A DNA stretch of 63,531 nt from Girardia tigrina (Eukaryota), in the NCBI GenBank assembly GCA_001938485.1, contig MQRK01216426.1, forward strand, positions 1-63,531, written 5' to 3'. Below, in pieces: positions 1,258 through 62,208 of the stretch. Position numbers and translations under genes: made by a program. How positions within the stretch are numbered: the stretch's first letter is position 1; each line of letters starts with the position of its first letter. Below the pieces are notes generated by a model. The model ran no database searches. It had not been told where the DNA came from and worked only from the letters and a program-made list of their open reading frames with translations.

Positions 1258-25961
<24,704 letters not shown>

Positions 25962-34549: not shown

Positions 34550-35757
34550 AATTACATATGGATTTAAAATAATTTTATTTATATACTTTTAATTATTGAT
34601 ATAAGTTACAAAATAATTGATTTTATATTTTTCTTTATTTATTTAATTATTATTAATTTAATGATAATATATAACATGAGTCATATTGCTACATTAACGC
34701 ATATTTTGTCGTTAAAAATCTAACGTTGTTTAAGTGGTAAAACTTACTGTTTTATTTCTTCCATTGATTTTTTTCTTAATTTTTTTAATGTATTTAGAAA
34801 TGTTGTTATGTATTTTGCATGCAAATAATTTTATGATAATGAGTAACCAAAAATAATTTATATTAAACAACGATAAAAGTATTAAAATAACAAATATAAA
34901 ATGTATATCATTTGTGGTTAGACCTAAAATATCATCAATTTATAATTATAATTTTAATTTTTCGTCAGTATTTAAAATGAAACATTTTTCAAAACTTTAG
35001 TATTTAACATATTTTGGTAATTATTTACTTTATCTTTATTATCGTCGTGATTCTAGTTCTTATCATTCCGTCACATTTCATGAAGAGGAAATTGTAAAAG
35101 AAAACCCAAAACAAATAAATAATAACAACTTATGTATAAAATGTGTATCAATCACCTAGAAATTACTATTTTTCCTCATGAAGTAAATAACACAATGTAG
35201 ACTTGGTTTGCAAATTTTATTGTCACGGATCCAACAATCTGTATACTGGAAAAACTAAATGATTTCTCCAAATTCACAGGCAGGCTAAATGTAAACATTC
35301 TAGGTGTAGAATATATAATTATTGTTTTTAAAAAGCTTTCCGTATGTCCGTAATAAAAATATTAAATATCTTAACTTTTCATGCTTAGATTTGAAAAACA
35401 TGCTACATTAACTTATATTCCATGACCTATCCGATTCGATAAATAAAAAAGTTTTAAAACGTGCTTTTAAATGTTTAGAATCGAATCAACAATAAAAAAT
35501 TAACATTTTTTTCAATTATTGAGTCTGGAAAAACCCAATAAATATGAATAATATTATCAATTTGACTGTTTATGAAATTTTTTCAAATATATTTTTTTCT
35601 AGATAAAGATCCTAGATAGACTGATCAAATAAGTCAGGTAATAATCTGGAATAATTTAAAATATAAATTTGAATTCTTCGTTGTGTAATATATCTTTAAC
35701 CTGTCAAGCACTTATGACGAATATATTCGCCACAGCAAATATATTAGATAGCGCTTA

Positions 35758-37482: not shown

Positions 37483-37577
37483 TAAAACGAATACATATTT
37501 TCATAAATACATAAACGAATTCGAATATTTTCGAATTATCAATAGAGTTAAACACGTTTTAATGTTTTGCGAATATA

Positions 37578-37977
37578 CAGGGGTGACCATAAGTCGCTTT
37601 ACCCAGTTTTAATAATAATAAACACAAAATTCTAAATGATTTATAAACAAAAACCAGATAATTTTTTTTGTTTTAATAATTATTTATTTAAAAATTTTTT
37701 AAATTATTTCATTTTGTTCATTGTTGTTGGCAATATTGGCATGGCATGACAATTAACACAACAGCAACAAATTTTTATAGTAAAGCAGTGGATAAAGCAT
37801 GATAGAAATTCAAGAGCTGTAGCTGCAGCATTTGCAAAAGAGTATCCTAATGACGCTCCTCCATCACGACAATCAATGATTTAATAAAAAAAGCGCTGAT
37901 TAAATAAAAGTTATATAATTTAGAATTTTGTGTTTATTATTATTAAAACTGGATAAAGTGACTTATGGCCACCCCTG
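37578..37977 (+). mobile_element. Tc1/mariner-superfamily MITE retaining the transposase N-terminus
   Basis: ~60-bp TIRs CAGGGGTG.CCATAAGTC.CTTTA, TA flanks; LTQQQQIFIVKQW..AVAAAFAKEYPNDAPPSRQS. Confidence 0.85.
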
Positions 37978-38180
37978 TATATTCGCAAAACATTAAAACG
38001 TGTTTAACTCTATGGATAATTCGAAAATATTCGCTTACTTGAAATAAATATGAATATATGTTGTCTTATATTGTTTCCGCGTATTGTTCTTGGTATCCAC
38101 TTCGTTCGACGAAATATGCCACTAGACAGGTTAAGAGTTCCTTTTCGAATCTTTTAAGTACCTTTTATAGTTCTCAAAAT

Positions 38181-44333: not shown

Positions 44334-47300
44334 ATGATGGCGTTGCGAAACGAATCGCCTCCTCCCGGTGTCACAGATGACGAGTTGCGCCTGGAATTGA
44401 TCGGCGACTCGAGCTACAGCAAGCTTGGCTGCATCGAGCTCATCCAGAGCATCATGGGCCGCCTCGTTCGGTACTGCTCGAGCGAGGAGAGCGGCGAGGC
44501 CGTCCATGACGAGTTTGAGTTCGATGACGAGCTGTGCAAGTTCATGGACATGACGGTGGACGTGGACGTGCTCCACTTCGTCAGGGAGATCGCCTTCATC
44601 GAGCCGCTGTGTCACGCGATCAGCATCAATCGGTCCGATCGATTTAATGTGAGACAATCGCACCACTTTATTCCATTTACAATCAGGGTACGACTGTTAT
44701 ACTGCCCCCACATTATGTAATCTGTGAAGATTTATATATTCTTTAAGATTAATTATTTATTTAATTATCGTCAGAATATATTGTGATTAATTTCGACGGA
44801 CCAACCGTCATAATCAATTTGTGCCTGATTAATCATAATATATTCTGACGAAATTTTATTTAATAAATTTTTAATAATTAATTTAATTTATTTTAATTAA
44901 TTAAATTCATTGAATAAATAAATTTTAATTAATTATTTATTTTTTTAGTAATTTAACTTAATAATTAATTTATTCTTTAAGATTAATTATTTATTTAATT
45001 ACTTTATTTAATAAATTATTAATAATTAATTTAATTTATTTTAATTAATTAAATTCATTGAATAAATAAATTAGTGAATCAATAAATCAATTATTACATA
45101 AATGAATAAAAAGTAAATAAAGTAAAGAATAAATTATTTAATTTATTATTTATTTTATTAAATAAATTATTTAACAAATAAATTATTAAATTTGATTTGA
45201 TTGAATTTCAATTAATAATTAATTATTTCATTTTTTATTAATTAATTAACAATTTTATCCATCCATTCCACCAGTTATTCCTCTAATTCGAAACGAAATT
45301 ATATAATCTATACAGATTACATAATATATGGGCAGTATAACATTCGTTCCAAATCTCAATTTAAAGGGAAAATTTCATAATGTAGAATGAAAAAAAATCA
45401 AATTTAAAATAAGCTTCAATTTAAAATCACAAATTCTTAATGTACAATGAAAAATTCTCAATTAGAAATTAATAATTTTCAATTTAAAAGGAAAATTATC
45501 GATTCAAAATGGAAAAATATCAATTTAAAAAAATTAAAAATCTCAATTTAAAGCGAAAATTTCTTAATTTAGAATGAAAAAAAATCCAATTTTATAATAA
45601 GACTCAATTTAAAATAAAGAAAAAATCTCAATTTAAAATCAGAAAATTCTCAATATAAAATGAGTCTCAATTTGAATTTAGATTTTTATTTCTATTTGAT
45701 TTTGTTATTTTTATGAGCAATTTTCGATTAGGATTACGACTTTATTAATATGGAAAAATTCAAATTTTTACGCTATTTTTTTTTACAATTTTTACGCTAA
45801 ATGGAAATACAAAAAAAATCATTTATTGATTAAAAAAATTATAATATTTTGTATTAATTTTTCATTGCAAAAATATCAATTAAAAAAATTAAAAATCTCA
45901 ATTTAAAGCGAAAATTTCTTAATTTAGAATGAAAAAAAAAATCCAATTTTATAATAAGACTCAATTTAAAATAAAGAAAAAATCTCAATTTAAAATCAGA
46001 AAATTCTCAAATTAAAAGGAAAAAAATTCTCAATATAAAATGAGTCTCAATTTGAATTTAGATTTTTATTTCTATTTGATTTGGCTATTTTTATTAGCGA
46101 TTTTCGATTAGGATTACGACTTTATTAATTGGAAAAATTCAAATTTTTACGCTAAATGGAAATACAAAAAAATCATTTATTGATTAAAAAAATTATAATA
46201 TTTTGTATTAATTTTTCATTGCTTGTCTTGTTTTTCTATCAAAATATTTCCAATTCGTCGTCTTACGAATGATTTGAGGCCTTCCTTTTCGCCTTTTCGG
46301 TTATCGGTTCTGTGAGGAATATTTTAAATTTGGTATGTTGAAATTGGTTTGTTGAATTTTGTATGTTGAGTTTAATATTTGGAAATGTGTTTCTCCCACC
46401 CAGATGGAAAATTGATATTTTGGATGTTCACGATAAATAATTATTCGAGTATAATTTATATTTTAAGTACAGCATAAGATATTTAAAAACATTAAAAATA
46501 TTAAATCATTTCAAATTTTCATATTAAAATTTAAATAAAATAAATAGTTTTAACTAAGTTTTGAATTAATTAAATGTTCTTTCTTTACATAAAATAATTT
46601 TTAAATAAAATTAATACTAAAATTATCAAATTTGAACTGTAAAAATAAAATCTGAAAATAATGAAAAATTTTAATAACCAAAGTCATCCATTAAAAAATA
46701 TATTTATAGACTATATATTTCGACGGATCTACCGTCATCTTCAGGTCACTAATTAATAATCAATGCACCTGTATATAAATACAAAAATAATGATTGTGTA
46801 ATCGATTGCATGAAATACAATTGCATAACGGTTACTGCAATATTACTTTTAACATTGTTAAAAGCAACTAACAATGAATTAAATTTAAAAATTATATCAC
46901 GATCTCATAAAATTCAAAATATGTTCAGTAATAAATCTATTACACCTTTAACACTGTGTTCTGATATTGTTTATGAATATAAATGTAATGGGTGCGATGC
47001 CACATACATTGGAGAGACTGCCCGTCATCTCTGTAAACGAATTCAAGATCATGGTCGAAAAGAGAGTGAGAGTAATATTGCAGAACATAGGAAAAATGTA
47101 AATGTGATGTTAATTTTGATAATTTCAAAATTCTGTGTAAGCATTTTGACAGTTATTGGGAGATAGTGTCGTGTGAAGCATTGTTAATTATGTCACGTTG
47201 CCCTAAAATCAATGTTCAATCGGCAGTCTCAACCAGCTAATTGAGAATTTTTGATTAGCATGATTTCATGCAATCGATTACATAATCATCATTTTTGTAT

Positions 47301-49970
47301 TTATATACAGGTGAATTGATTATTAATTAGTGACCTGAAGATGACGGTTGATCCGTCGAAATATATTGTCTATAAATATATTTTTTAATGGATGACTTTG
47401 GTAATTAAAAGAATTTTTTCATCCGGACTTCGTTTTATCAATGAAAAATTTTTTCGAATAATTGTTTATTAACAAACATTAACAAAAAATTATCAATTTA
47501 GAACGATGTCGAATGACGAGAGTTTTGCTGAGAGTTGTCCAAAAGACAATTCTGATTGTATTGAAAATAAAAGTTCGAAAACCATGTTGGTGTTCTTAAT
47601 AGGTTCAAAAACAAAATTCAATTTCTGTTTCAAATACAACACGCACCAGACACGCTGACACTGTTTAAGCTGTGATATCTTTGATATTTTCAACAAATTG
47701 ATCTTTAGCCGCTTGAGTCATCGAATTTACATTCACGTCCATCTTCAAAATTATATTGTATTACAACTGAGACCGGATGGACTAATTTTTTCATCTTCCT
47801 CATTTTCTTGGTTCATTCAGCATTTGGTAACAATAAGTACATGTCGTCGTCACCTTGTGATATAGGGTTTTTCGATTTATTTTCCAATCTTGCAATCAAT
47901 TTTCCAATGATATAATTTTAATCAATAGAAATTAATTATTCATAAATTATTAAAAATTTTGAAAAAACCGATAAAACGGGTGGTGATCGAAGATCTAAAC
48001 TTGATGATAATCAAAAGCATCAGTTTAGAGCCTGGGTGGATGAAAATCGCCTTCTTACCCTAAAAGAATTGAGTGGTAAGGTTATTGATCTTTTTCGATC
48101 GAGTGTGTCTCAAAGCACCATTGACCGCTGTCTCAGGCGATTTCATTACACCTTAAAACAGATTACAATAACTCCTGCCCCACGAAACCATGGTAGTACC
48201 ATTGAAAAAAGATATCAGTATGCGCATAAGTGCAGGGAATATAAGGTGACTCAGTGTTGACAAATTAATTTTCTTAGATGAAGTTGGCAGTGCAGTGTCC
48301 CTTGCAGGCACTTCTGCATATGTAGATGTTGTGATGGGTATTTTAGAAAAATGCTTCGATATGCCATTAAAGCGGAAAAGAGAAACAATTCTTGAATAAA
48401 ATTTGTTTCTTTAATACATATATTATATATACTTTGTGTTGTTATTTCTGATGTTATTAATTTTTTTAATTTTATTGATGTTAGAGATGATATATTGATA
48501 TAATGGAAATTAATATTAATTTTGTAGTTACTTCTATTATTAAAAATATTATTATTATTTTTTCATGTATAAAAAATCCAAAAAAACATTTTTAAACAAT
48601 TTTGATTTTATGTAATTTTATTTATCTTATTAATTTTTATTGATTAAAATTATATCATTGTAAAAATGATTGCAAGAAAATTAAAAAAAGACGGTTACGC
48701 AATCTTCGTTGGAAAATAAATCGAAAAACCCTATATTTTTTATCTCTCTGCATCCATATTCGATTTTCATCATTATAACCAACTCCTTCAAATGATTTCC
48801 ATTGGTTTACCGTTCGTTTCTTAATTTCTTTCGTATTATTATTGTTATCCATTTATAGATAAATTTTAATCAATTTTTAATATTGGAAATAAATTTAAAA
48901 AATTAATTAATAAAAACAAAAAATCACCGATTTAAAATATATTATCTATAAATTTTTATTATTTTAAAAAATCTGAAAGAAAGTTAAATTATATTTAGCG
49001 TAAGGAATTGTTTAAAAATGTGCGTAAAATTGTAAAATTAGCGTATGTATTTTATTACACCCTTATTAATATTATAATTAAATAATAGACTTTTATATTG
49101 TCCCCAAATTGTGTAATCATTTTGTAACAATTTTAATTCAATCTATAACAATCTTCGAAAAAAATAACTCTAAGCGTGGTTTACTCAAAGGATGAAATAT
49201 TTTTTAATGATGTTAATGTGACTTGGGCATGGAAAAGCATGATTTTCTATCACTATTCATTTGGCTTAGCAAAGTTGATAAACATTCTTTATTAGGTTGA
49301 ACAAGCAAGAATCGTGATCTTGAAGAAGAAGCGGTTGAATTGAAATTGAAACTTAAAAATTGAAGTATAAAAGTCACTCCAATTCAATTTTAAGAGCCTA
49401 TGATAGAAATTTTATCCTTTGAGTAAACCATGCTTAGAGTCATTATTTTCCTAAGATTGTTATAGATTGAATTAAAATTGAAACAAATGATTACATAATT
49501 TCTGGGGCAATATAAAATCGTACCTTTCAAAACAATATTAAAGGATTACAATAAACAACAAATTTAAAAATTAAATATACGTAAAATAATAATTGTGATA
49601 AATATTTTTATTAAAATTTTAAAATTAGATATTATTTTGATTTGATTGCAATTTTAAATAAATGACAAATTATTGGAAAATAGAGATCGGCGGATTCATT
49701 ATTAACTTAGAAAATGTTTGGGACTTTGTTTGAAAATTGTTTATAATAAATGTATAAATTGAGTAAAAAATGATTTCTGAAATTTATGTTACACACACCT
49801 CACAATTTGTATAATTTTAATGATTTTAATTTTTTCAATTTTATTGTTTTTGTCTGTATTGGTGAATTCTATTTTGTATTCTTTTTATTAGCTTACTTTC
49901 TATATATATATATATATATANNNNNNNNNNNNNNNNNNNNNNNNNNNNNNNNNNNNNNNNNNNNNNNNNN

Positions 49971-50022
<52 letters not shown>

Positions 50023-53000
50023 CACTGTGCAGAAAAATCTGTATAAAATGGATAAAAATAAGACGACGCGTTTCGAGATAATAATCATCTCATCATCAGG
50101 TCACAAAATACACTTAGATAGTACACTATATGGAAACTTGCCAAAAATAAATAAATATTATCCAATAAATTATTGGATGAAAATAATTTTATTTCACTTT
50201 TCCTTAAAATTATGCAAAATGCATTACATGCAATTATTTCCATTCTCGCAAACCAACCATTGGCAGCTATCAATTGCCATTTAAGAAAACGATATGTTTT
50301 CTCTATTGTTCGTACTTTACAAGGTATCTGAGACATGATAAAGATGACAACTAACAGCACACGAAAAGCTAATCTTTGAGATGAAGCTTCTCACACTCAA
50401 TGCAATGAACTCAATTTTAGCCTTCCCATCAAACCCAAAACAATCTGAAATCTCATCGATGCAATTTGACTGAAATGTCTAATCAAATGGAATTGATTGC
50501 ATTTAGTGCATTTTGCTTTATTTTAAGGAAAAGTGAAATAAAATTATTTTTATCCAATAATTTATTGGATAAATTTTATTTATTTTTGAAAAGTTTCCAT
50601 ATAGTATCTTAGAGCATCTTGTGACCTGATGATGAGATTAATATTATCTTGAAACGCGTCGTCTTATTTTTATCCCTTATATTTTGAAGGCCTTTTATTC
50701 AATCAATTTTCTCCAATCTTTCCACATTTACTCACTTTCGATGACGATAAATGATTACAGTAGATACCGCTTAAAGAGAATATTTTTGGGACTTGAAAAA
50801 ATGTTCTCTATAACCGATATTTCTCTTTAACAGATACTTTTTTACAAGGATAATTTTTAAAAAAATATCAAAAAAAAACTGTACTAATCAACACATTTAT
50901 TTTTTAAAAAAAAGTTCCAAAAGTTAAAAAAAAACCAAAAAGTTCTCTAACCGATTTTATTCTCTTTAAGCAAGTTCTCTATAAGCGAAATCTACTGTAT
51001 GTGAAAATTTCATCAAACTAGTAAATCAAACAATTGTTTTTGCAAAAAAAACGTTTGACGATTATCCGCAAATGTTTAAACTGTATTAAATAGAAATGTT
51101 ATTATTAACTTTTTAATTGTAAAATGTAGTTACTAAAAATTTTTGGTATGAAATTTTCCATTTTACAAAAGATTTAAATAGTTACTTATAACGTAATTAA
51201 TTTTTTAAAAGAACGTAATAGTAATTTTCAATCTTCTATAAAAGATATAAAAAAATTCTGTTGGCCGAGTGGAATTCTGCCCGTATAAAGAATGGATATG
51301 AAAAATTTTTTTTGATTTACTAGCTTCGTCCTTAGACAGTTTTGGCCAATGATTTCCACATGTTAATTTCCCTGTCACTAATTTTAAAGTTTCAGTAATT
51401 TTTATTTATTTTACTTGTTGATTAATAGAATACTTACTACCGTGTTTCTCGAAGTATAAGACACTGTCTTATATTCATTTTGATGGAAAATTACTAGTAG
51501 GTCTTATACTAACATATTTAAGGGATGTCTTTTATTGTTGGGTATTTGAATTAACTCTGTTTTATCCTTGTTTATATTAAATTTCTAATCTGACTCCAAA
51601 AAGACCAAAATGTTTCTTCTAACATTAATATATGAAGAATGAACACAAATCCTTTTAATATACTTTATTTGTAAATGACAACTTGAGCATAAAATTAAAT
51701 CGAAACTTTAACAACAAATCAATATTTTGAAGCACACTCAACCAGCACAAACCAATATCAATTTAGAACGAGCAATATCTGAAATTTATGATTAAATTTT
51801 TCTGCTGTACAGGATACTAAATTTGTTAAGTAAACTAAAATTAAATAAAGAAAGATTACCATAAATCATAATCAAGTTTAAAAATTTAATAGGATCTGTA
51901 AGTATAATTTATCCGTAATTTTTGTTGTGAATATGACTGAAATAATTATTGTTTATATACTAGTTTTTCTAACCTTAAAAATTGAAAGGCTAAAACAAAT
52001 CTCAAAATATTTATAATTATTCTAAAAATTTTATTAAAATAATGTAAATCGAAAATTATTGATTTTTTAACAGAGAATTATTTTTAATTTTTTTACAAAA
52101 CTTTTTGATTAAAAATTTGAATTTATATTTTGAAACCCCAACAATATTAATATTCCCAAAAAAAGTCTATATTTTGGACTTGGGCGTTATTCCGGGGAAT
52201 GTCTTGTATTTGTAGAAACACGGTATAACGTTTATAACATTTTTTTCTAAAGATTTTTACACTTATATATTACAATTATACCATAATTAAAACCTATATT
52301 TTATCAACTGTACTGATCTAATTTGAGTATAATTAATTGGTATCGTATTGTAAACAATTGAAATTCCCAATGATTTCAGGAGCTGTTTATCGGGATATTA
52401 AGTAATTTTGCATCTGACGACGTATTGTGTCACAAAATCACTGGGAATTTGGAAATTGTGTTAGTGAGTTATTTGAAATATCTACTATCTATTGATTGTT
52501 TCTTTGATCTTCAGAGATTTATTTATATCATTTTGGTCATCTGATTATCCTTCGTTTTTATTAGAATGCTCCAGGTAACGAGTATCGGTTATAAGAATCG
52601 AATTATTGTTGTTTAGGTTAATAAAAATTGTCTTAAAGAATCCCAGTTGCTTCCCTGTCTGGTTGCAAGTAATTAAGTCCAATGAAAACTTTCTAAATCA
52701 CATTATTTTCATTTTGAATTCCTCGACAAATGGTTAAGAGTTTTTTTATTTGAATGGAAACAGAACTCAACGATTGGTATTCTTATTAGGTGAACTGTTA
52801 ATATCGACTCTACAAGTTGTCGGACAGTTGATGAAACTCGATGATGAGCTGTGCGAGAAATGGATCAGTCATGAGTTACTCTCGGCTGCGCTGGTCGCGA
52901 GAAAAGAGACCGAGTAAATTATTTGAATTCGATTAGATGTCATTGGTGTAGTGGTTGACACATAAGATCATTGGACACAAATAGGATTTAATTTACAAAA

Positions 53001-56000
53001 TTATAACATTTGTAAAGATTTTAAATAAGTTTAACTGAAAACATTTAACTTTCTCGTTCTTGATAAAACGAAGTCCGGATGAAAATCTTCTTTTAATAAC
53101 CAAAGTCATCCATTAAAAAATATATTTATAGACTATATATTTCGACGGATCAACCGTCATCTTCAGGTCACTAATTAATAATCAATTCACCTGTATATAA
53201 ATACAAAAATGACGATTATGTAATCGATTGCATGAAATCATGCTAATCAAAAATTCTCAATTAGCTGGTTGAGACTGCCGATTGAACATTGATTTTAGGG
53301 AAACGTGACATAATTAACAATGCTTCACACGACACTCTCTCCCAATAACTGTCAAAATGCTTACACAGAATTTTGAAATTATCAAAATTAACATCAGATT
53401 TATATTTTTTCCTGTGTTCTGCAATATTACTCTCACTCTCTTTTCGACGATGTTCTTGAATTCGTTTACAGAGATGACGGACAGTCTCTCCAATGTATGT
53501 GGCATCGCACCCATTACATTTATATTCATAAACAATATCAGAACACAGTGTTAAAGGTGTAATAGATTATTACTGAACATATTTTGAATTTTATGAGATC
53601 GTGATATAATTTTTAAATTTAATTCATTGTTAGTTGCTTTTAACAATGCATTTTTAAAGTTTTTAAATCCTTCAGAATAAGGTACAATTAAACAATATTT
53701 AGGCATATTATTCATATCTAATGATCCTTCGATTTCTTTCTTAGATCCATCAGGAGAAGCCAAACTCTGATTTTTCGAAAAAATTTTCAAAAGTATTTTA
53801 TCTACTGTTTCCTTTATTAATTTTTCTAGAAAGGATTTAGAATAACCATTCTGATTTAACAAAGAACTTAGTTTATTAACACTTTCTACAGATTTAACAA
53901 AAGTGGAAGACAAAGACCAGGAGCGATAAATTAAACCTTTAATCATGTTTCTTTTATACTCAAGTTCACAAAAACTATCTGGTGAAGTATATAAACCTGT
54001 ATCAGTTTGCTTCCTATAAATTCGTTCTTGAAAATTTCAGTAGAGAAATCTAATTTTTTTATTTCTAGGTTTATCATTTTAAATTGGACATTTTTATTTT
54101 AGATTGATTTTTTTAATTTTAAACTGAATTTTCATGTGTAACTTGTGAGGATGTGGCGCACTCTTAAAATTGGTGAATGTTTGAGATGGGCGGATGTCTG
54201 GGGTCGAAAGTTCTTGGGGGAAATTGTAATGGTATCACGACAGAACACCGCGAATGAAAACGTCGAATTTAATAATTAAATTAATATTAAAATTATTTAA
54301 TTTGGTAAAATTTTATTTAATTAATATTGATATTATTAAAATGAATATTATTATTTGAAAATTTTTCAAAAAGGGCTTAAATTAACCTCTAAAAATGAGT
54401 ACCCTGTTTTATGGTTATAAGGTACCACTGCTTATTTAGGTGCCACCTTATTAAATTTTTATCCGAATGAACACGAAGACGTTGAAGATGTAGTTATTGA
54501 GGAAAGCGATGAAAAATCTGAAGAATCTAAAGATGAGGTAGATGAAGATCAAGGTATTCGTGAGCAGCTCATTGATATATTGTTGGATGAAAATAATTTT
54601 GGTAGCGAAGATGAAGATTATGATGATTCAAAAATATAATTGAAAAAGATGGAATTTTTTTTAAATTTTTGTTTCGTTTTACTAAGGTTCCACTGTTTAC
54701 TAAGGTGCTTTCGGGGAAAAATTTTGTCTTTTAAAATCTACTAAGGTGCCACCATATAACCATAAAACAGGGCATGTTTTTTGATACCGTCCCATGTTTC
54801 CCTAGAGACTGACCTGTGCAGCAGAATCATTGCACTGGATTTGTTGCAACTCGTTCTGGGCCCATTTAAAATTCTTTAATTGTTTGTTCATTTTTAAATC
54901 GTTTTTAATCCTTAACAATATTCAAATCAAAAGACAAATAGAAAAATCGTATAAATTCGTCTCGAAAAATTCGTTAATACAGTTTTGTTTCAAAAATTCG
55001 AAATCGTAAAAAAAGTGATCAAAAGTCGTTCAATCAAAATATTAAATAGCTCAAATCGTCAAAATATTCGTTACAGTAAATAGCTCGAAATCGACAATCA
55101 TTAATTATGGTTCTTTGAAAAAAATTTGGATACTGAAATGTGTGAGAAATATTTGCCATGCATATTGAAGGAAAGTCAGCGAGGGAAATTTCAAAATTTT
55201 TAGATATAAGTAAATTGATGGTTTTCAAAAGCATTAAAAAAGCTAAATATCGTCAGAATTACTCATCGTCAGAGAAATCTGGACGACCAAAGTTGATAAC
55301 AGGTTTTGAAGAAGCTAATTCCTCAATATCGTCGTGCTGCTGTTCACATAATAAACAATAAATGGAGTATACAAACAGTCATTTGAACTTTTCCGTTCAT
55401 TTGTCTACGTCGAATACGTGTATATTTCATCCATAATTAAAGGATATGACGAAACACGATAGAAAGATCTTGCGGGCTAGTTGCTTGTTGACGACTGAGA
55501 TTTCAAATTCTGATGCCTTGTGTGATTCTATTTTTAGTGTAGTGTTCTTGGTTCTCGCTGTCTGTGATATTCCCTGGGAGTGGAGGAACTTCAGTAATTG
55601 TACTTTCATACTTGTAATCAGAGTTAAAAACATTATCATAAGAGTGATTATTTACAAAAGTTACATAATCACACCCGTAAATTAAATGATACAAGGGAAA
55701 TGTTTGGTGTGATGGAATTTAATATCAATAACACGATTATTAAACTATCAAAATCGGAAATTAATGTTTTAAAATTTGGAAAAATTGGAGGGTATGTGAT
55801 AATGATTTTTAGGGTTTGATTAGTAACTTAGATCACAATTATGAAACGACATTTACTGAAGTGCTGTTAATAAAGTTTTATAAACCGAGCTTAAACATGC
55901 AAAGTGATTTATCCTATCATATTAGAGTATTTTGAAGAAAGATATTGTGATGTCTTGCCCATCTTACTAGATTTACATAAAATTGATCACCGAAATAATT

Positions 56001-57200
56001 GCTCCTTGACGAATTGCTCGAGGTTGAATTTTAATAGAGAAAAAACTGCAAGTATACTATCGATGCATAAAATATAGTACATTTTTTACAATACAATCTC
56101 TTATGGTTAGGTTTAGCCCTAATCTTTAACTCCGTAACCCTTACCCTAACTCTTACCTTAACGCTAATCCGTAAGCCTAACCAAAATCCTAAACTCTAAC
56201 CTAGTAACCTAAATCTAACCCTTAACCTAAGCGCTAACATGAACCCTAATACAAATTCAGTTTTTCATGGAGCAATTTTCGTACGGGGAGAAATTTTATT
56301 AAGGAGCAATAATGAGAAGAGTAGTTTTCATCGGGAGGAATTTTTGGGGATCAATTGTCTGGATATCATCTTTTTTTTACTTAAATACGGGACTGAAGAT
56401 GCCACAAAAGTGGCGAAATATGTTTTCCAATAAAAATTTAAATTTGAAATTGTGTTATTTTAATTTACTTATCAATTTACCATTTGATTTAATTATTAAT
56501 GCCAAAATAAAAAGTTAAACAGACATGATTGAATCGATTTTTGGTTTCTTCTGTTTTAAATTCAAAAATCTTTTTAAAATCGATTTTGGATTTATCATTT
56601 ATCAAAAAAAGTAATGAGTAAAATTAAACTAAATCACGAAATATTTTACTTAATAATGAGACGAAAGTAATTTTTTGGAACATTTTGTTAAGAAGTGATT
56701 CTTTGTTTCTAAAATCGCGGCTGTACTGAATATTTGAATACATATATTTCAGATGGTTCCTCAATAATGATATTGATTATTTCCATTACTTGATCCATTT
56801 GTTTTCTACAAATGAGAATGGGATTGTTACTCTAAGTTCGTTTTTTTTAATGTCGATTATATAACCGGAGATGGCCGATTTAGTTAGTAATTTCCATGCG
56901 GTTTACGCGAGTTTCAACGAGTACCTCAATAAGATTTGTGATGAAGAGCCACACCTGATAATCATCGGACAATGCCACAATAGTCTCAGGTTGATTCTAC
57001 CCACCATCGATGTGGTGGTGGCCAATATGGCCACCGAGGAGGCGCTGAACCTACTCCAGTCTGAGCCAACCGTACTCGACAATCTCGTACGGCTTGTTTA
57101 CTCATGCAGCCTTCAATCAGAGAAGACAGCCGCCCAGGAGGTCTATCTCGAGATCAGCTCGTTTTTCAATACGATTATTGGTATCACTTACTCGAATTTG
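44334..57200 (+). CDS. SAAL1: SAAL1 orthologue; exons 44334-44648, 52380-52459, 52515-52574, 52617-52732, 52790-52913, 56753-~56825, 56871-57200; 3' exon(s) not resolved
   Basis: RNESPPP..IGDSSYSK..DDELCKFMDMTVDVDV, ELFIGILSNFA, SDYPSFLLECSRL, FILNSSTN, LMKLDDELCEKW parallel human SAAL1 motifs as recalled (RNPSPPP, IGSTVYSK, EICVGILGNMA, SDPPTLLETSRL, FIMSSSTN, LFDLDEKLMLEW); GT-AG phases consistent, exon 6 donor uncertain. Confidence 0.85.
44691..45346. mobile_element. AT-rich MITE
   Basis: ~50-bp imperfect TIRs CGA.TGTTATACTGCCC..A.ATTATGTAATCTGT. Confidence 0.7.
44785..44817 (-). ncRNA. Degenerate minimal hammerhead motif inside a 24-bp-arm hairpin (44768-44851)
   Basis: Minus strand TTGATTA-T-GACGG-TTGGT-CCGTC-GAAA-TTAA-TC; core CTGANGA has two substitutions. 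Confidence 0.55.
45513..46222. repeat. Tandem duplication of a ~355-bp unit built from CTCAATTTAAAA-like subrepeats
   Basis: 45513-45868 resembles 45869-46222; both end TTTGTATTAATTTTTCATTGC. Confidence 0.85.
46709..46749 (-). ncRNA. Minimal type-I hammerhead ribozyme
   Basis: GAC-CTGAAGA-T-GACGG-TAGAT-CCGTC-GAAA-TATA-TA-GTC. Confidence 0.85.
47330..47370 (+). ncRNA. Minimal type-I hammerhead ribozyme
   Basis: GAC-CTGAAGA-T-GACGG-TTGAT-CCGTC-GAAA-TATA-TT-GTC. Confidence 0.85.
47940..48330 (+). mobile_element. IS630/Tc1-like transposase fragment
   Basis: GGDRRSKL..WVDENRLLTLKEL..VSQSTIDRCL..YTLK..RN..IFLDEVG. Confidence 0.75.
49091..49517. mobile_element. Long-TIR MITE / foldback
   Basis: ~105-bp imperfect inverted repeats (TTTTAATTCAATCTATAACAATCTT..CTCTAAGC.TGGTTTACTCAAAGGAT). 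Confidence 0.8.
50062..50104 (-). ncRNA. Minimal type-I hammerhead ribozyme
   Basis: GAC-CTGATGA-T-GAGAT-GATTATT-ATCTC-GAAA-CGCG-TC-GTC. Confidence 0.88.
50621..50663 (+). ncRNA. Minimal type-I hammerhead ribozyme
   Basis: GAC-CTGATGA-T-GAGAT-TAATATT-ATCTT-GAAA-CGCG-TC-GTC. Confidence 0.85.
50758..50997. mobile_element. pogo/Tc1-type MITE inserted at TA within the repeat shared with 445-910
   Basis: TIRs CAGTAGAT..CGCTTA.AGAGAA; removing it restores ATGATTATGT as at ~519-528. Confidence 0.85.
51440..52223. mobile_element. pogo-type MITE
   Basis: TA|CCGTGTTTCT..A..TA.AAGACA ... TGTCTTGTATTTGTAGAAACACGG|TA. Confidence 0.75.
53061..54021 (-). mobile_element. 5'-truncated Penelope-like element (same family as 46671-47440): RT thumb + GIY-YIG + 3' UTR
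   Basis: IYRKQTDTGLY..MIKGLIYRSWSLSS..L.QNGYS; near-identical GIY-YIG and UTR; TSD TCGTTCT(TGA). Confidence 0.93.
53131..53171 (-). ncRNA. Minimal type-I hammerhead ribozyme
   Basis: GAC-CTGAAGA-T-GACGG-TTGAT-CCGTC-GAAA-TATA-TA-GTC. Confidence 0.88.
54402..54772 (+). mobile_element. Internal-deletion derivative of the pogo at 35758-37482
   Basis: Same TIRs CCCTGTTTTATGGTTATA and near-identical acidic C-terminal coding segment. Confidence 0.9.
55120..55420 (+). mobile_element. Tc1 transposase HTH fragment
   Basis: HIEGKSAREISKFLDISK..V..SIKK..KSGRPKLIT. Confidence 0.65.
55995..56365. mobile_element. MITE with degenerate (CCCTAA)n core
   Basis: Inverted ATTGCTCC/GGAGCAAT subterminal repeats flank CCTAAC-like repeats at 56115-56250. 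Confidence 0.6.
56389..56428 (+). ncRNA. Minimal type-I hammerhead ribozyme
   Basis: GGGA-CTGAAGA-T-GCCAC-AAAA-GTGGC-GAAA-TATG-TT-TTCC. Confidence 0.75.
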
Positions 57201-57775
57201 GTGAGTTTTTTGTGCTCACGATGAATTCATTATTGATTTTATTTACTTTATTAATCATTATGCTTACAAGAAATATCTGATTGTTAAAAGAAAAGAACAA
57301 CTAATTTATCTGTTTTCTAATAACAAAAATATTCCTTTAAATAGCAACGATCATTGTCAATAATCTTCTGCCAGTCTTCGGATCTGTCCCATGTACAGGT
57401 TTTAAGGTTTTCGGATTAAGACTAGATAAGTTTTTCAATTCAATCAAAATTGATAAATCTGAGGCCCATTAGGAATTGCTGCATTGACCGGAATCTGGTA
57501 TAGTTGGGTACAGGTCTTTTTGGCGCCGTTTTGGCACTCTTTATATATTTTATTATTAAATAATTTTTAAATAGATTTTTGTTTATGGTATGGGAGCTAT
57601 TCTTTCAATGGAATAATGTTTTCCAGGTGTTATAATTCAGGTTTGCTTTTTTCATTTAGCTCATAATGTGAAGAAACAAGTAAAACGGATTGGATTGCAG
57701 AGTGAATGGAATTCAAACCCTGAATTTTCATTGAAAGTTAAAATGGTGGTTGCATTATGTTTTGTACATATAGAT

Positions 57776-60405: not shown

Positions 60406-60457
<52 letters not shown>

Positions 60458-60499
60458 AGTCTTGTAAACGCAAGTTTAATATTTTGAAATATAATTTGA

Positions 60500-61050
60500 T
60501 TAAAGCTTTTTTATATAATTATTGGACATGTTTCGATGTTTATATACATCATCATCAGTAATTTTAATACAATTTTAATAGATACATTAACTTTAAAAGG
60601 TATATTAGGGATTGAATATTATTTATTAAAGTATTATTGAAAAAAAATTTAATTTTGAACTTTGGATGTGACAGAGACTACTTTAGCACTACTTATTGTT
60701 CTACAAATACTCTTCAAAAATGCTCTAAATCCTTCAGAATATGGAATTTTAATGATTTGTTTGTATTCTTCAGTATTTTCTTCTTTTAATTGTTTTTTAA
60801 CTCGTGCATCTGTACATAATTTGTCTAATGTTACCCTAATGTTGTGTTCTATTTGTTTATTTGTATACATATTGACCCTCAAGCGCCTTCTAAGAATATT
60901 TAAACCCTGATTTGCAATTTCAAAACTGGACGACAAATTCCGAACTCTGTGAACAAGCCCTTTGATCATACCCTCTCTGTATTTTTCCTCACAAAAACTC
61001 TGTGGTGTTGTGTAAAGACCTGTATCTGTTGCCTTTCTGAATAATTCAAT
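60500..61050 (-). mobile_element. Truncated Penelope-like element of a second family; GIY-YIG core deleted
   Basis: LFRKATDTGLYTTPQSFCEEKYREGMIKGLVHRVRNLSS..IPYSEGF. Confidence 0.85.
60521..60562 (-). ncRNA. Minimal type-I hammerhead ribozyme
   Basis: CTGATGA-T-GATGT-ATATAA-ACATC-GAAA-CATG-TC; stem I imperfect. Confidence 0.78.
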
Positions 61051-62208
61051 TCAGAGATAGTTTAATAAATAATTTTATCAAAAATTTCAATGAAATTAAT
61101 TTTATCAATAATTTTCTATAAATGATTTATGAATCTTTTTATTTCTTTGGATTTTTAGCTAGTTATTTTAAAAATATAATTAACTGTTAATATAACAGAA
61201 TTTGGGAAATATTGGAATTGTATATGGGTGTCATCATATCATTCAAAACACTCAATAATTTAATAATGATTATTGATAGTAATTTAATTATCTATACACA
61301 ATTGTCTTTCCGGAATTGTCTTGTCACAATTTTTTGATAGGTCTCGTTAATCTAATATTGACTAATATAGTAACTCAAGGTCGATTAAGTTCAAATGTCT
61401 AATTTTTGAAGTTTTATCCTCGGAAACTTGCATACAGTGATGGATCTTAGTTACAGATATAGGTCTACGGTAAGTCAAGGTCATCCAAGATCAAATGCTT
61501 AAAATTTGAATTAAAGCTTAGGCAATCGATTTTGAGTTGATTTTGAGTCATATAATCATGATATTTAGATTATTTAATATCCTTCGTTGCCATTCGGGAC
61601 CATATTCAATATCTAGAAATCCAAGTTTTATTTCACGTTGTTGAATAGTCAAAGAAAATATGATTTATTTTTTAAAAATGGTCACTGTAAAATATTGATG
61701 CTTTCATAACACTGAACACTATTATGGTTCGGGTCATAATAGGTAAATCTCAGCATAAATTTCTATTAGCAGTAAAAAAACTGATACATAAAAGAGAAAA
61801 TGCGTTGTTCGTCACTCACTGCAGTGGGTCTATATTTTTTTCTGAATAAAACCTAACAGAACACGAACATTGTAGTTGTGAAAGATGATTAAAAAAAGAT
61901 TTAGAAATAGCAAAAAAGAGATAATCAGTTACTATCAAATGAAAATCTAGATCTGGCAAACAGCAACAAATAACAAACGACAACTATCACCATAATTAAA
62001 GATCAAATTCTAGCTCAAATTCAGATAAAGTGATGTTATTTATGACTTATAGATTATCATTGCTTGTATTTTGGACTTGAGATTATTTGATTTTCTATAA
62101 TTATGAACCTCATCAAAATTTCTTGTAACAAATTTTAATCATTTTTAGTATTATTAAAATGCGACAATTTTTATGATAACCCAAATAGTTTGAAAAATAG
62201 GTGATCTA

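Follow-up and report, generated by a model that had tools for sequence, protein, structure and literature searches.

A hammerhead-bearing foldback of Girardia tigrina is most probably a single, dead Penelope-like insertion with an inverted pLTR copy

Minimal hammerhead ribozymes are found in pairs in Schistosoma mansoni, in which dual motifs lie about 100-700 bp apart on opposite strands and dispersed motifs are tied to truncated Penelope-like retrotransposons (PLEs) (Cervera and de la Pena 2014, PMC4209133). Minimal hammerheads are reported to need a dimer and to cleave poorly (PMC4209133), and such hammerheads are also reported to need the PLE protein (PMC11167929). In Adineta vaga, the Penelope elements Pen2a_Av, Pen1_Av and Pen3a_Av have inverted pLTRs of 181-218 bp, one of which bears a 31-bp tail, and an 8-10-bp target-site duplication (TSD) surrounds the whole (Arkhipova et al. 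2013, PMC3846280). The pLTRs of this species contain palindromes of 18 and 38 bp and include the beginning of the ORF, which amounts to 12 and 22 aa in Pen2a_Av; host DNA has been captured ahead of the 3' pLTR, and unrelated non-coding DNA has been found between solo pLTRs, of unstated orientation, with TSDs (PMC3846280). The general PLE pattern comprises an inverted 5'-truncated copy at the 5' end, a one-sided 30-40-bp tail and a bias for microsatellites (Craig et al. 2021, PMC8557442). The tail was traced to two reverse transcriptase (RT) start sites, and the ORF starts at stem II, 26 nt before the cut in the element PAc (Frangieh et al. 2024, PMC11167929). Elsewhere, pLTR inversion and short extensions have been described as peculiarities of individual copies (PMC8969392).

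Here, we analyzed a stretch of 63,531 bp (contig MQRK01216426.1; hereafter, the window) from Girardia tigrina, an AT-rich eukaryote with many transposon relics, including several Penelope pieces. The unit of interest is a 656-base DNA foldback at 50022-50677 with one hammerhead motif per arm (Table 1). BLASTN aligned 50043-50244 with the reverse of 50486-50682 over 202 bp (87.6% identity, E 6e-67), and global alignment of 50050-50244 with 50486-50675 defined arms of 190 and 195 bp that differ by 18 substitutions over 190 aligned columns (9.5%) and by one 5-nt indel. These differences are clustered, as 6 of the 18 substitutions fall within the inner 35 nt, and 5 together with the indel within about 25 nt. 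Judging from the alignment, such clustering could reflect the use of two templates. A sequence-only reading of this locus had described diverged inverted arms of ~190 bp around a ~240-bp spacer, each arm with an internal near-palindrome, and our measurements bear this out. The spacer is 241 nt long, and the palindromes are 19 bp in the left arm and a perfect 25 bp in the right arm, the latter being the longest non-microsatellite palindrome among the 15 found in the window. The same reading had placed the foldback at 50050-50675. The foldback is real, but the unit is longer and asymmetric, with a tail of 26-28 nt at the left arm only and a right arm that abuts a direct repeat. It had also seen no recognizable ORF in the spacer, whereas a 101-codon open frame is present at 50085-50390 (-); this frame matched nothing in Pfam, PLE profile and ESM Atlas searches.

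Table 1. Features of the foldback unit, of the second copy of its spacer and of the family B Penelope elements (window coordinates; a dot indicates no strand).
Feature	Position	Strand	Remark
50-N gap	49921-49970	.	Left of (TA)n
(TA)n microsatellite, likely target	49971-50019	.	Adjoins tailed end of the unit
Left copy of candidate 7-bp TSD, TATATTT	50015-50021	+	Overlaps end of (TA)n
One-sided tail, 26-28 nt	50022-50049	-	Left arm only
Left arm, inferred native pLTR	50050-50244	-	3' end of insert, collinear with spacer
Left minimal type I hammerhead	50062-50102	-	Predicted cut between 50065 and 50064
19-bp palindrome in left arm	50160-50178	.
Inner 37 bp of left arm plus spacer	50208-50487	.	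Repeated at 12161-12441 (81%); no protein match
Spacer, 241 bp	50245-50485	.
Inversion junction, 2-nt (AA) microhomology	50486-50487	.	Homology to the 12-kb copy ends exactly here
Right arm, inferred inverted tail-less pLTR copy	50486-50677	+	5' end of insert
25-bp perfect palindrome in right arm	50549-50573	.
Second minimal hammerhead	50623-50663	+	Core intact, C11.1 to U (50650); predicted cut after 50660
Right copy of candidate 7-bp TSD	50678-50684	+
Second, older copy of spacer segment	12161-12441	+	Without hammerhead or arms
Family B foldback	46660-47452	+	13-bp TSD, inverted pLTR 46669-46816, Penelope GIY-YIG ORF end, pLTR
Family B foldback, junction palindrome	46846-46864
Family B foldback, tail, 29-31 nt	47411-47441		Native arm only
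Linear 5'-truncated family B Penelope	53054-54031	-	RT end, GIY-YIG, pLTR with hammerhead, tail, 10-bp TSD

The direct repeat TATATTT encloses the whole 656-bp unit, and no separate direct repeat brackets either arm at its outer end. A 7-nt match within 3 nt of two random ends was obtained in 0.84% of 20,000 trials (chance of 0.006-0.008 given the ends), which we regard as moderate support for a TSD, since the repeat is short, AT-rich and overlaps (TA)n, and the ends were chosen partly by eye. An assembly artefact was ruled out, as the arms differ at the positions described above and both copies of the repeat lie on the gap-free side. Within the window, neither BLASTN nor nhmmer detected the outer arm a further time.

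Both hammerheads point outward, with C3 at 50626 (+) and 50099 (-). Each arm contains CUGAUGA, an extra U after A9, stem II, GAAA, the palindrome ACGCGU, a GUC triplet and a 3-bp stem I. In the left hammerhead, stem II is 7 bp long, G10.1 faces C11.1 and stem III is formed by ACGCGT, while G10.1-U11.1 replaces the conserved G-C pair in the right one. Both cores, each with an ACGCGT palindrome and a GUC triplet, had been called intact from the sequence; the 13 core nucleotides are indeed intact in either arm, but C11.1 is lost from the right copy. With the exception of this G-U at 10.1-11.1, the motifs fit the consensus given for PLE minimal hammerheads, namely an extra nucleotide after A9, G10.1-C11.1, a long helix II, a short helix I and a palindromic 15.2-16.2 (PMC4209133).

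A minimal-hammerhead descriptor, written post hoc once the motifs had been seen, found 5 sites in the window compared to a mean of 0.13 (maximum of 1) in 60 Markov-simulated windows. No Rfam hammerhead reached the gathering score in the window, nor E<=10 in 49900-50900. A covariance model built from six window hammerheads, for which E-values are rough and training sequences match by construction, added two weak sites at 56387 (+) and 44775 (-). The six hammerheads represent three families with three different 6-nt palindromes in stem III; pairing holds in 62 of 63 cells, and both sides vary in 6 of 11 pairs. Coming from only three independent families, this covariation is supportive, not strong. 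The hammerhead-like motif at 56387-56433 (+) is solo; its stem II is a perfect 5 bp, its stem III palindrome is broken, and it has no inverted partner in the window. Given this motif and the tiny numbers, we abandoned the notion that intronic hammerheads on the sense strand persist only within foldbacks. Another palindrome (909-926) resembles stem II and is not a hammerhead.

The sequence-only reading implied selection on both cores. However, as far as the two arms tell, the hammerheads are under no visible selection, as 3 of 41 hammerhead positions differ compared to 15 of 149 in the rest of the arms (Fisher p=0.43), and 13 identical core positions are expected with a probability of 0.27. Any transcript of the unit contains one sense hammerhead with its antisense upstream. 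The long hairpin that had been anticipated for such a transcript was recovered in the predicted fold of the + strand (-275.8 kcal/mol, z -23.8), which none of 20 shuffles equaled. Freeing the only sense hammerhead of either transcript is predicted to cost 65-68 kcal/mol, and in the predicted fold of the full-length transcript the core is unpaired with a probability of 0.0004-0.0008. Monomer folding of the six window hammerhead regions predicted none as a hammerhead alone, and only stem II of families B and C formed, which for the unit is in line with the dimer and protein dependence reported for such motifs (PMC4209133, PMC11167929).

The hammerhead pair of the unit resembles the S. mansoni dual minimal hammerheads, with motifs of the same build on opposite strands and a C3-to-C3 distance of 527 bp; stem I has 3 bp here compared to 4-5 bp in S. 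mansoni, and stem III keeps a 6-nt palindrome like the Drosophila, rotifer and mosquito variants (PMC4209133). As in the A. vaga inserts, inverted arms of ~190 bp contain an internal palindrome and a tail is present on one side. Unlike them, the unit has a TSD of 7 bp, lacks a direct pLTR beside the inverted one, and carries its palindrome inside the arm and not at the junction (PMC3846280). The tail is slightly short of the 30-40 bp of PLEs (PMC8557442), family B having 29-31 nt, and, in contrast to PLE inserts in general, no ORF remnant lies between the arms. Stem II begins with an ATG located 29 nt ahead of the cut, compared to 26 nt in PAc (PMC11167929). The frame that it starts runs for 16 codons in the arm and for 25 with the tail, the latter being weak evidence as it arises by chance in 13% of cases; each arm has one stop, at different codons, and the corresponding family B frame extends for 15 codons only. 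Animal non-LTR retrozymes share with the unit a non-coding nature, a type I hammerhead, a PLE derivation and low GC (Cervera and de la Pena 2020, PMC7229834; Li et al. bioRxiv 10.64898/2026.07.22.740005). However, in retrozymes two hammerheads on the same strand, within direct tandem repeats, release circular RNA, an arrangement not found in the unit (PMC7229834; bioRxiv 10.64898/2026.07.22.740005). With one hammerhead on each strand, the unit cannot yield an excised monomer or circle.

A second Penelope family of the window, family B, serves as an internal control. It forms a foldback of the same shape, with outward hammerheads and arms that are 93.8% identical, the spacer of which is the GIY-YIG end of the ORF. 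The body of this foldback shares 97.5% identity over 590 bp with a linear copy at 53 kb (BLASTN). GIY-YIG was detected by Pfam in the 53-kb copy (E 1.5e-5) and, below the cut-off, in the foldback (E 0.002), and a GIY-YIG profile scored 130 and 89 bits, respectively. One family therefore gives rise to linear as well as foldback inserts in this genome. Counting the unit, two foldbacks and a linear copy lie within 8 kb. The family B junction also contains a 36-nt filler that includes a short antisense piece of the element. Collinearity of arms and spacer with one ordinary Penelope copy, which the sequence-only reading had held to speak against a distinct element, was found for this twin at 46660-47452, but not for the unit, which has no parent in the window and a spacer without a PLE ORF match.

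The spacer has a second copy at 12 kb, which BLASTN aligned with the inner 37 bp of the left arm and the spacer (50208-50487). This copy continues through the left junction of the unit and departs exactly at the right junction. Therefore, the left arm and the spacer were collinear in a minus-strand parent, and the right arm is an inverted addition. A profile built from 140 GIY-YIG domains gave at best 4.7 bits near the unit, and one built from 90 full-length PLE proteins gave less than 1 bit; these profiles do detect the other relics of the window and are biased to relatives of family B, such that another clade could be missed. The spacer was rejected as a GIY-YIG end at that sensitivity (140-domain and C-terminal profiles), and as a PLE N-terminus, suggested by eye from a short + strand motif, at 0.2 bits. 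It was also rejected as coding sequence, as the changes that separate the two copies favor no codon position (5/5/6 and 12/10/5 in the two long segments) and synonymous changes are enriched in none of the frames. Pfam matched none of 12 frames of the spacer, none of 32 candidates was confirmed when the 84-codon minus-strand frame from the 12-kb copy was searched against a protein database, and ESM Atlas searches with two frames returned matches below 0.9 only, or none. Two readings apply to the spacer, namely a long 3' UTR from a family whose ORF is absent from the window, or captured DNA located upstream of a solo pLTR. The pLTR proper would then span 50050-50207, close to the 148-bp arm of family B. 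The absence of a pLTR from the 12-kb copy is unusual for a 3'-anchored insert and needs either a later deletion or the capture reading. No ORF-bearing element with the same pLTR as the unit was found in the 63.5-kb window.

We conclude that the unit is most probably a dead and old single insertion of a 5'-truncated PLE whose pLTR was duplicated in opposite directions. Four marks of such insertions are present: a pLTR with a minimal hammerhead, a 5'-truncated copy lying inverted at the 5' end, a tail on one side only and a short TSD at an AT-rich or microsatellite target. An RT and GIY-YIG ORF, or its 3' remnant, is absent upstream of the pLTR at the profile sensitivity used. As an ORF is required of an autonomous PLE and not of a truncated stub, we file the unit as a PLE-made insertion. 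It does not appear to be a retrozyme, a MITE or an autonomous PLE. The link to Penelope that the sequence-only reading had drawn is thereby upheld by the PLE-type hammerheads, the tail, the TSD and a twin with an identified parent. Between the two outcomes which it offered, the one-off inverted insertion agrees with arms that are single in the window, asymmetric ends and the family B precedent; the MITE-like hairpin element distinct from retrozymes does not, given these same arms and ends and cores without visible selection.

The following series of events could have produced the unit. By analogy with described PLEs (PMC11167929, PMC3846280, PMC8557442), an RT/GIY-YIG protein encoded at another locus would have nicked the AT-rich target. 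Of two start sites that lie just within the beginning of the ORF, the outer one would have been used to prime cDNA from the minus-strand parent, which would yield the tail, and the pLTR and about 280 nt upstream would then have been copied. The inverted tail-less pLTR would be explained by a second priming at the inner start site, or by a template switch from there, with the joint formed at the 2-nt microhomology, and repair would have left the TSD. The hammerhead presumably served the parent and not this copy, with a predicted dimer through the ACGCGT palindrome that was likely assisted by protein. At present, the intronic unit is predicted to be transcribed as a 190-bp hairpin in which the sole sense hammerhead would be paired with its own antisense and silent.

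Alternatively, the unit could belong to a multi-copy non-autonomous foldback family, the whole 656 bp being re-transcribed and re-inserted by a PLE acting in trans. The spacer is indeed a repeat without a PLE ORF match, the TSD surrounds the entire unit, PLE pLTRs suffice for mobilization in trans in A. vaga (PMC3846280), and only 63.5 kb were searched. We nevertheless consider such a family unlikely, because the arms have no other copy in the window, the second spacer copy has neither the inversion junction nor the two hammerheads, a full-length transcript would bury pLTR and hammerhead in the predicted fold, no selection is visible on the cores, and family B shows the same shape arising from an ordinary element. 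A more elaborate version, in which a captured 280-bp cargo between inverted hammerhead pLTRs would be multi-copy and re-transpose as a unit, with a transcript that hides the ribozyme and an intronic 190-bp dsRNA that silences the parent family, appears improbable as well.

The arms could also stem from two separate events, either head-to-head insertions of solo pLTRs or a later inverted duplication by replication or repair. Their divergence of 9.5%, with clustered changes, exceeds that between the family B arms and speaks for this possibility. However, the unit as a whole is enclosed by a single direct repeat, neither arm has one of its own at the outer ends, the inverted arm holds 37 bp of the spacer-family segment and was therefore copied from the same chimeric template, and it stops one tail-length short, as in family B; two events are thus very unlikely. 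Finally, the unit could be a genuine MITE or a DNA transposon of the foldback type (Mutator- or Galileo-like), cut by a transposase and with a PLE pLTR co-opted as long terminal inverted repeats. The long inverted arms, the 7-bp TSD and the (TA)n target are compatible with this. TSD lengths of the Mutator- and Galileo-like superfamilies accommodate 7 bp, a Mutator-like family reportedly targets TA, and several MITE-like units lie in the window. Conversely, 26-28 nt separate the left arm from the TSD, which the right arm abuts, meaning that the termini are not inverted repeats, and the element occurs once in 63.5 kb, so that we hold a DNA transposon to be extremely improbable.

There are published examples of opposite-strand hammerhead pairs 100-700 bp apart, of one-tailed inverted pLTRs and of non-coding DNA flanked by solo pLTRs (PMC4209133, PMC8557442, PMC3846280). 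As it stands, the unit is one more Penelope insertion scar and matters little, other than as a warning that such scars can resemble MITEs. Together, the two foldbacks and the linear copy provide a clean worked example of the unexplained inverted-pLTR step. Among the papers listed in literature searches, no title or abstract opening mentions a multi-copy PLE foldback family, and supplements may hold closer examples. If the unit were multi-copy with fixed junctions, it would be an RNA-mobilized hairpin element of a kind not described in those titles and openings, and a minimal substrate for studying how PLE proteins make inverted ends.

The window contains other Penelope relics. A third one (60440-61056, -) has its RT end joined near-directly to a pLTR with a hammerhead (ACATGT palindrome), is missing GIY-YIG and terminates at (TA)n. 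In a fourth (55586-55935, +), an N-terminal piece with 66% to an unnamed PLE protein is fused to the last 45 GIY-YIG codons, and a weak GIY-YIG-like fragment (13 bits) lies at 35176-35304 (+). A decayed inverted repeat at 44687-45350, possibly a third and older foldback, holds a degenerate family-B-like hammerhead (44775-44836, -) just inside a predicted intron.

That 7.7-kb intron (44649-52379), inferred from splice signals and phase only, also contains the unit and belongs to a plus-strand gene with predicted exons at 44334-44648, from 52380 onward, 52790-52914 and 56865-57224, the first splice being in phase; this gene may be SAAL1-like. Near the unit, a small element at 50760-50998 has inverted ends between TA dinucleotides, is presumably Tc1/mariner-like by its pattern, and sits inside an older repeat also found at 474-751. 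Further inverted-repeat units without hammerheads, MITE-like or Tc1-like, are located at 49091-49517, 37493-38061, 24652-24877, 22172-22564, 12854-13063 and 47860-48736. A pattern search of bacterial and archaeal genomes gave no matches, as expected for a eukaryotic element, and a bacterial promoter scan, not relevant here, remained at chance level. Elsewhere in the window, exons of a leucine-rich-repeat gene occur at 13400-13590 and 24996-25376 (+), the second with a Pfam LRR match, and a frame at 20278-20850 (+) may be dihydrofolate reductase-like.
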